Shown here one piece after another: positions 48,554 to 48,741 of a stretch of 64,000 bases of DNA; positions within the stretch are counted from its first letter, which is position 1; the number at the start of each line of letters is the position of its first letter. Below the pieces are notes generated by a model, which searched no databases, was not told where the DNA came from, and worked only from the letters and a program-made list of their open reading frames with translations. Origin of the DNA: a virus. The stretch is taken from positions 4,421 to 68,420 of the IMG/VR virus record IMGVR_UViG_3300027805_000012, one strand, 5' to 3'. A program made the position numbers and the translations under genes.

Positions 48554-48682
48554 ATGAACTCAATCGTCAATCGCACCAAAACCACGGAGATGTTCTGGCA
48601 ACAGCGCCAGAATAATTTCGTGCGCTTTAAGCGTCATGAGATTGATACCAAAACCCTGGTCTTCGGGGAGAGGAAAGCCTAA
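48554..48682 (+). CDS. Putative leader peptide (42 aa)
   Basis: MNSIVNRTKTTEMFWQQRQNNFVRFKRHEIDTKTLVFGERKA; weak Shine-Dalgarno. Confidence 0.5.
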   Translation: MNSIVNRTKTTEMFWQQRQNNFVRFKRHEIDTKTLVFGERKA

Positions 48683-48706
48683 AGCAAACCTCAAGTTCTA
48701 AGACCA

Positions 48707-48741
48707 GGGACCTAGCGAAAGCAAGGTCCCTTCGTTGTTTT
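48707..48741 (+). terminator. Rho-independent terminator with competing antiterminator
   Basis: gggacct-a-gc-GAAA-gc-a-aggtccc followed by ttcgttgtttt. Confidence 0.7.

Follow-up and report, generated by a model that had tools for sequence, protein, structure and literature searches.

Why phages carry tRNA genes is an old question, and the current answers are codon compensation and the replacement of tRNAs destroyed by host defences (PMC10264068, PMC11555353). The locus described here raises the further question of whether a phage may gate its tRNA genes according to how well their codons are being decoded. A preliminary description, made from the sequence alone, had proposed that a 42-codon ORF followed by a terminator forms a translation-sensing attenuator for a tRNA array. 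Our analysis supports this proposal, through a conserved promoter, ORF, antiterminator strand (R2), terminator, U tract and downstream array, and through three-way covariation; comparison with relatives strengthens the case beyond what this one locus can show. Specifically, we consider it likely that transcription is attenuated here by a ribosome-mediated leader-peptide mechanism, in which the leader corresponds to the tRNA array and read-through from an early σ70-type promoter is gated.

The DNA analysed (hereafter, the window) is a stretch of 64,000 nucleotides comprising most of a 69.8-kb IMG/VR viral contig; the completeness estimate for this contig is 19%, indicating that the source is a very large phage. 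Near-identical sequence is present in runs labelled freshwater or aquatic metagenomes. The leader and the switch lie between a PvuII-like fragment (48296-48475) and a homing endonuclease gene (49038-49661), with the tRNA array beyond (49647-52467).

A conserved promoter and leader ORF

The 5′ part of the locus comprises the following features (window coordinates):

48296-48475: PvuII-like 59-aa fragment, resembling the PvuII N-terminus (Pfam E 0.0026)
48482-48510, plus strand: σ70-like promoter, TTGCAC, 17-nt spacer, TATAAA, as read from the sequence
48535-48539, plus strand: Shine-Dalgarno-like AAGGA, 14 nt 5′ of the ATG
48554-48682, plus strand: leader ORF, 42 codons, ATG start, TAA stop at 48680-82
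48583-48634, plus strand: two conserved ORF-internal hairpins, with cores 48593-99 / 48606-12 and 48622-26 / 48630-34

A homologue search of called genes, followed by a profile search, yielded a leader family of 49 distinct ORFs of 40-44 codons. About 20 loci had sufficient flanks, and in all of them the promoter is found together with the ORF of 40-44 codons, a hairpin with a U tract and a tRNA array on the same strand. Because these family members had been found through the ORF, we performed a second, ORF-independent search with DNA patterns derived from an ORF-internal hairpin, from R2 and the bases following it, and from the terminator; the leader ORF is intact in all true matches (L010/L011, L012, L014, L041 and L042), and indels within it are all in frame. 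The family occurs widely among giant-phage contigs from freshwater and soil, which opens its logic to comparative testing. A DNA search of a phage collection gave no match to the window locus, and viral-contig searches with the neighbouring proteins gave no useful relatives.

In relatives, the promoter reads TTGTAC-N17-TATAAT at the aligned place, and transcription is expected to start near 48517. DNA conservation starts at 48516-22, immediately 3′ of the promoter, and extends across the ORF and the hairpin to ~48990. Most relatives have GGA or GGAG 7-10 nt 5′ of the ATG. The Shine-Dalgarno sequence noted in the preliminary description is present, but the weakness attributed to it is not: its predicted anti-Shine-Dalgarno duplex has an energy of −5.4 kcal/mol in the window and −3.0 to −6.6 kcal/mol across the leader family, compared with medians of −4.0 kcal/mol for the long ORFs of the window and −2.2 kcal/mol for random 17-mers. 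The 42-codon ORF was confirmed at its full extent, as was its use of 17 of the 20 amino acids. The locus therefore presents what an attenuator needs at its 5′ end, namely a short leader ORF with a start codon and a ribosome-binding site behind a conserved promoter. The leader ORFs of the main family mostly end in TAA.

The leader peptide is more conserved than is usual for leader peptides, with 20 invariant columns across seven diverse members; the ORF-internal hairpins account for part of this, and the peptide itself may have a function. The hairpins show compensatory change (alignment columns 60/75 are CG in eight sequences and UA in six), neither pairs with R2, and they may be pause or folding elements. 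A larger hairpin, 48560-48645, that appeared in a single-sequence fold was discarded, as only its inner parts are kept in the family.

Peptide conservation is also what would be expected of an ordinary small gene, encoding a 40-44-aa protein with a function of its own, for which the hairpin serves as terminator, the R2:R3 pairing described below serves as an mRNA 3′ structure for stability or translation, and the array is reached by leak-through or from other promoters. Consistent with such a gene, the ORF has its own promoter and terminator-like element, and one relative has a promoter-like site just before the first tRNA. Against it, the leader region contains long invariant nucleotide runs without synonymous change, which point to constraint at the RNA level, and the peptide has no Pfam, PHROG or NCBIfam family match. 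The pairing and composition data below bear on the same choice.

The PvuII-like ORF of 59 aa (region 48261-48475) has its own TTGTAC-type promoter and aligns to positions 1-61 of the PvuII endonuclease model, ending before the catalytic E-x-K. The fragment is absent from relatives, indicating a local insertion. We considered whether the leader ORF is a decayed part of a PvuII-like gene, as the two share a frame with two stops between them; this was ruled out, since the Pfam match ends at model residue 61 and since relatives without the fragment have the leader ORF, which is thus not its remnant.

Alternative pairing of a strand downstream of the ORF

The ORF end and the region 3′ of it contain the elements of a candidate switch:

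48654-48663, plus strand: R2, putative antiterminator 5′ strand, CCCTGGTCTT, codons 34-37, within the ORF
48700-48709, plus strand: R3, AAGACCAGGG, partner of R2, or of R4 via GGG at 48707-09
48706-48741, plus strand: intrinsic-terminator-like element, GC hairpin with arms 48706-16 / 48721-31 and a GAAA loop, followed by TTCGTTGTTTT

R2 and R3 form an inverted repeat of 10 nt with 100% complementarity, as originally noted. In 17 related loci, 8-10 of the 10 pairs are kept despite sequence change, with pairing energies of −15 to −27 kcal/mol and with compensatory changes; for example, UCUU/AAGA is replaced by UUCU/AGAA in L011, and the strands read CCUAGUGC/GCACUAGG in L020. At the place of the terminator in the preliminary description there is likewise a hairpin followed by a U tract, which ends at 48741. 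The U-rich tail is present in all 17 loci (the tract is interrupted in the window), and R2 starts ~26 nt before the stop codon in all 17. The stretch as a whole folds far better than shuffled controls (z −5.7).

R4 pairs with the same bases of R3 that pair with R2, through 4-9 contiguous pairs. The preliminary description had considered the overlap between antiterminator and terminator to be short, at 3 nt. This holds in the window, where the sequence after the hairpin, CCCUUCG, retains only the GGG/CCC part, but not across the family: CCCUGGU follows the hairpin in most relatives and pairs with ACCAGGG, the same bases that R2 uses, so that terminator and antiterminator share 5-9 nt.

Covariation in relatives, named at the outset as a check on the pairing, was found for both the R2:R3 helix and the terminator helix. 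In alignment A3, none of 500 shuffles reaches the observed pairing or the observed covariation of either helix. The top of the terminator hairpin contains 18 double-change cells, a score that none of 500 shuffles reaches, with variants including ACCU/AGGU, AACC/GGUU, UCCU/AGGA, AAAC/GUUU, AUAC/GUAU and UACC/GGUA. The retention of R2:R3 and of the hairpin in 17 loci despite these sequence changes is thus more than chance. In L018, L020, L021 and L040, moreover, R2, R3 and R4 change together; this is the behaviour of a strand with two alternative partners. An ordinary small gene has no role for such three-way covariation, nor for the fixed distance between R2 and the stop codon.

Predicted folds behave accordingly. 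RNA ending before R4 folds into R2:R3, while the terminator forms in full-length RNA and also when the end of the ORF is masked as by a ribosome. The locus therefore contains, at the level of sequence, both a GC hairpin with a U tract between the ORF and the array and an antiterminator mutually exclusive with it. A trp-style 1:2 anti-antiterminator was looked for and none was found, and the nascent fold without any ribosome favours read-through. The footprint expected for a ribosome at the stop codon falls just short of R2 and R3, so blocking of the antiterminator would be a matter of geometry rather than of direct masking.

A search of genome contigs with the terminator pattern matched nothing other than apparent gene-end terminators of an ordinary kind, in unrelated bacterial MAG contigs. 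An Rfam search of 48470-49045 gave no T-box match at E up to 10 and no match to a known RNA family, including group I introns, except a sub-threshold match to BjrC68 (23 bits), which we discounted because it mirrors a stem followed by the terminator hairpin. An RNase P-like GAGGAAAGCC motif was also set aside, its putative P4 partner lying in a non-conserved hairpin loop.

The leader codons match the tRNAs of the array

In the proposed attenuator, a ribosome stalled 5′ of R2 leaves R2 free, so only codons before R2 can act as sensor. We therefore compared these codons with the downstream genes:

48554-48652, plus strand: proposed sensor part of the ORF, codons 1-33, of which 31 are read by array tRNAs
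49647-52467, plus strand: tRNA array, 17 tRNAs (ARAGORN) and some irregular tRNA-like units

In all 15 loci scanned with ARAGORN, and also in L040, L041 and L042, a large array of tRNA genes, in most cases with tRNA-Trp at its head, comes next on the same strand. The array in the window has 13 specificities (Trp, His, Asn, Lys, Glu, Thr, Asp, Ile, Gln, Phe, Arg, Met and Val) and is without a tRNA for Ala, Cys, Gly, Leu, Pro, Ser or Tyr; most relatives' arrays have the same 13-amino-acid set or a subset of it.

Codon match was scored under strict wobble rules, with the long ORFs of the phage as background. The sensor part is covered at 31 of 33 codons in the window (binomial P 3.4e-7), the exceptions being TCA (Ser3) and GTG (Val23), and at 31 of 31 in L011, compared with 0.529 for the background, in which none of 14,778 windows reaches 31/33 and the L011 value is likewise never attained. 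The preliminary description had suggested that the peptide senses general translation health; this can be sharpened, in that the codons before R2 are those of the 13 specificities of the array.

The same partition is seen across the family. Among the 49 peptides, 94.3% of residues before R2 belong to the 13-amino-acid set, compared with 53% in the tail (the last nine residues) and 61% in the long ORFs of the window. In particular, Leu, Gly and Ala, which in the window leader are confined to the last nine codons, each account for 0.1-0.6% of residues before R2 and ~14% after it; with Pro counted as well, these residues hardly occur among the first 31-35 positions and are frequent in the last nine. 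At the sensor columns, minor residue types fall within the set in 130 cases and outside it in 32. In the ORF frame, 94% of residues are in the set, compared with 48-50% in the two other frames. The candidate regulatory codons are thus cognate to what the regulated genes supply, with no tandem runs of a single codon, and the split in composition between sensor and tail is a prediction of the attenuator model.

Changes in array content are paralleled in the leader. Two leaders with a Cys in their core (L021 and L027/L040) precede arrays that contain tRNA-Cys(GCA), which is absent from the other arrays examined; these leaders probably form a single clade, and hence represent one event. In L040, the AGC/AGT Ser codons and AGA Arg codons are matched by tRNA-Ser(GCU) and tRNA-Arg(UCU). 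A pattern search for further Cys-type leaders gave one true locus, the other matches being chance. The match also has exceptions: many leaders have Ser at codons 3-5 before arrays without tRNA-Ser, L040 scores only 19/33 under strict wobble rules, and L022 retains its leader although few tRNAs lie close by.

These data weigh on the ordinary small gene as well. The Leu/Ala/Gly/Pro split is hard to ascribe to protein folding, and the match to the array tRNA set, including Cys and AGY-Ser in one clade, would be unexplained. We consider it unlikely that the ORF is an ordinary gene of this kind.

Three further observations concern the arrays. The locus L022:9001-12222, on a 287-kb contig, retains the leader ORF, R2/R3 and the terminator and has just three tRNAs (Trp, Asp and Arg) in the next 3 kb, among protein genes. 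Within the window array, a 70-aa ORF (51795-52007) with a strong Shine-Dalgarno sequence, AAGGAGG, has a first half rich in Tyr and Pro, for neither of which the array has a tRNA. Many Asn, Gln, Glu, Ile and Lys tRNAs with lengths of 84-97 nt occur in the window (51454-51539) and in the arrays of L004, L011, L012, L014, L016, L018 and L021; such lengths in tRNAs of normally short-arm identity suggest extra arms or inserts.

Transcription of the leader region

All sequencing runs were available as contigs, from which RNA ends, strand and level are not readable; uncovered stretches and small-share runs were left out of the evidence. Three metatranscriptome runs from different studies contain RNA contigs that start at 48501, 48544 or 48695, bridge the hairpin and end at 48840-53. 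The region is thus transcribed, termination at 48741 is incomplete, and read-through transcripts exist. Two metatranscriptome runs, each from a different study, have a contig over 48501-48853 that is 2-10 times as deep as the phage contigs next to it; in a third run, the leader-region contig is the only long piece of the phage. A DNA run shows no depth excess here. The excess is consistent with strong transcription of the leader; the RNA that is abundant may extend further than an attenuated transcript would. The ends of the RNA contigs coincide with the borders of the conserved block and may be breaks in the assembly graph.

Abundant RNA extending past the hairpin, into a conserved RNA domain, could also be taken to mean that translation controls the switch by another logic, such as nascent-peptide arrest, Rho-dependent polarity, or control of RNA processing or stability. 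TnaC is an arrest peptide, and the conserved Trp and peptide core of the leader might, by analogy, recall peptides of its kind. Such a logic does not account for the conserved hairpin and U tract, a pattern that recurs at apparent gene ends of unrelated bacteria, or for the covariation of R3:R4, and an arrest peptide responding to a single signal would not need a codon set that tracks array content. We regard control by another logic as quite improbable, and continue with ribosome-mediated attenuation of transcription.

A structured RNA and insertions before the first tRNA

Between the terminator and the array lie two further features:

48744-48990, plus strand: conserved structured RNA between the terminator and the first tRNA, with no Rfam match
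49038-49661, plus strand: homing endonuclease gene (phrog_314, E 8.7e-20), inserted between the leader RNA and tRNA-Trp

The structured RNA comprises a hairpin (48753-71), a motif at ~48786-48850, and a long helix closed by 48873-86 / 48976-89. The hairpin at 48753-71 co-varies; in distant relatives the motif consists of GGAUGACCGCUAUGA, a co-varying hairpin with a conserved 12-15-nt loop, and then CGAGUGCGA..AAGGGAUGG. The RNA contigs end within this structure, near 48840-53. A second ORF at 48786-48857 was rejected, as its frame is lost in relatives. A regular-expression promoter scan from the terminator to the first tRNA was negative, a result to which we give no weight, since the same expression failed on most of the upstream promoters already known; in one relative, a promoter-like site immediately precedes the first tRNA.

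Conservation that extends to ~48990 raises the possibility that the whole of 48517-48990 is a non-coding structured RNA, acting as a processing platform or in trans, in which an ORF merely happens to be open and the hairpin is an internal structural element. Fold z-scores of −5.7 and −5.9, the GNRA-type GAAA loop of the hairpin, and RNA contigs that pass the hairpin to ~48850 agree with this. The ORF, however, is intact in every member, including those found independently of it, with all indels in frame; the composition signal is present in the ORF frame only; the start codon and Shine-Dalgarno-like site are kept; and mutually exclusive R2:R3 and R3:R4 pairings are unexpected for one static fold. 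A purely non-coding RNA is, in our view, very unlikely.

The homing endonuclease is missing here in L007, L014 and others, in which tRNA-Trp lies directly 3′ of the leader RNA; by this comparison, the gene is an insertion that does not belong to the ancestral unit. In the window, its 3′ end overlaps tRNA-Trp by 15 nt. The corresponding gap holds an HNH_3 endonuclease gene in L016 (4182-4643) and a 218-aa ORF in L017 (4389-5045), and seems to attract insertions.

A second cassette in a relative

The window contig has one cassette only, for 13 amino acids. A second cassette, at L052:2765-2950, is present in the relative G002. It combines a −10-like element (TATAAA) with a 15-codon ORF in which Leu, Pro, Ala, Ser and Gly are abundant. 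The ORF contains CCCUUGA, the complement of UCAAGGG at the base of a GC hairpin that is followed by a U tract. The layout of R2, R3 and terminator is as in the main leader. Downstream of the 15-codon ORF is a second tRNA block, with Val, Gly, Leu, Ile, Thr, Ser, Ala and Pro; between this block and the terminator of the second cassette there are two promoter-like sites. G002 also has a 91-nt tRNA with anticodon UUA (L052:11514-11604; ARAGORN), a candidate suppressor of UAA stop codons.

Proposed mechanism

The elements, their conservation and covariation, the codon match and transcription of the region are observed directly; that the leader ORF is translated, that the hairpin terminates, and how far and in which direction the system responds are inferences. 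In the proposed mechanism, host RNA polymerase would initiate near 48517, and a ribosome would translate the 42-codon leader. When decoding is fast, the ribosome would be at the last nine codons or the stop codon while R3 and R4 are transcribed; occupying R2, or the interval between R2 and R3, it would allow R3:R4 to form, and the full GC hairpin with its U tract would stop transcription near 48741. When the ribosome stalls in codons 1 to ~30, R2 would remain free and would pair with R3 once R3 emerges; R2:R3 would remove the base of the terminator stem, and polymerase would traverse the structured RNA of 250 nt and reach the tRNA genes. Termination would be favoured if the ribosome stalled on R2 or beyond it.

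The leader would thereby act as a multivalent probe of the 13 decoding capacities of the array. Because nearly all codons before R2 are read by array tRNAs, such a probe would provide negative feedback: tRNAs would be made when they are short, for example after loss of host tRNAs, and production would be switched off once supply is restored. With a leader written in the codons of the array and a switchable stop, the phage probably makes the array tRNAs only when the leader codons are decoded slowly.

A more specific version, to which we give slightly less than an even chance, is that the leader is a 13-valent sensor for the loss of any host tRNA that the array can replace, whether to anticodon nucleases, other tRNA-targeting defences or phage-induced host shut-off, with the array transcribed in response and then turned off after recovery. 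If this is true, it would, together with sister cassettes for the remaining amino acids such as that of G002, represent a general self-tuning control of viral tRNA supply.

Comparison with known systems

In enterobacterial amino-acid operon attenuators, stalling at regulatory codons favours read-through (PMC1183508, PMC3082878). The multivalent leaders of ilvGMEDA, ilvBN and thr and the single-amino-acid leaders trpL, hisL, pheL and leuL resemble the phage locus in having a short leader, an antiterminator and terminator that share a strand, and a hairpin with a U tract ahead of the controlled genes; in design, the ilv and thr leaders, which are multivalent, come closest. The phage system differs in regulating tRNA genes rather than biosynthetic enzymes; in having a longer leader (40-44 codons) with no single-codon run, which instead samples ~13 amino acids, mostly one to four times each; and in having the antiterminator 5′ strand inside the ORF, 5′ of the stop codon. 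As it has no detected 1:2 anti-antiterminator, an untranslated phage leader should read through rather than super-attenuate.

The pheST attenuator, with its leader pheM, and T-box riboswitches likewise fit the supply of decoding machinery to demand through a choice between terminator and antiterminator. The pheM leader controls a synthetase and senses one amino acid. T-box riboswitches bind uncharged tRNA directly and require no ribosome, whereas the phage leader is proposed to act through one.

Leader RNA that has been liberated can be abundant, as for rnTrpL of Sinorhizobium (PMC6614838), and the phage leader region is likewise 2-10 times deeper than its neighbours; unlike rnTrpL, it shows no sign of a trans-acting role, and its RNA contigs extend ~100 nt past the terminator.

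A literature search found no paper on attenuation of tRNA genes, tRNA operons, pheV or phage tRNA arrays. Attenuator-like leaders were reportedly described before E. coli tRNA-Phe genes in the 1980s. A sensor built into an array in the array's own codons would show phage tRNAs to be an on-demand repair kit for decoding, would provide a compact reporter of codon-specific translation stress, and would bring tRNA supply, in addition to amino-acid supply, within the scope of classical attenuation.
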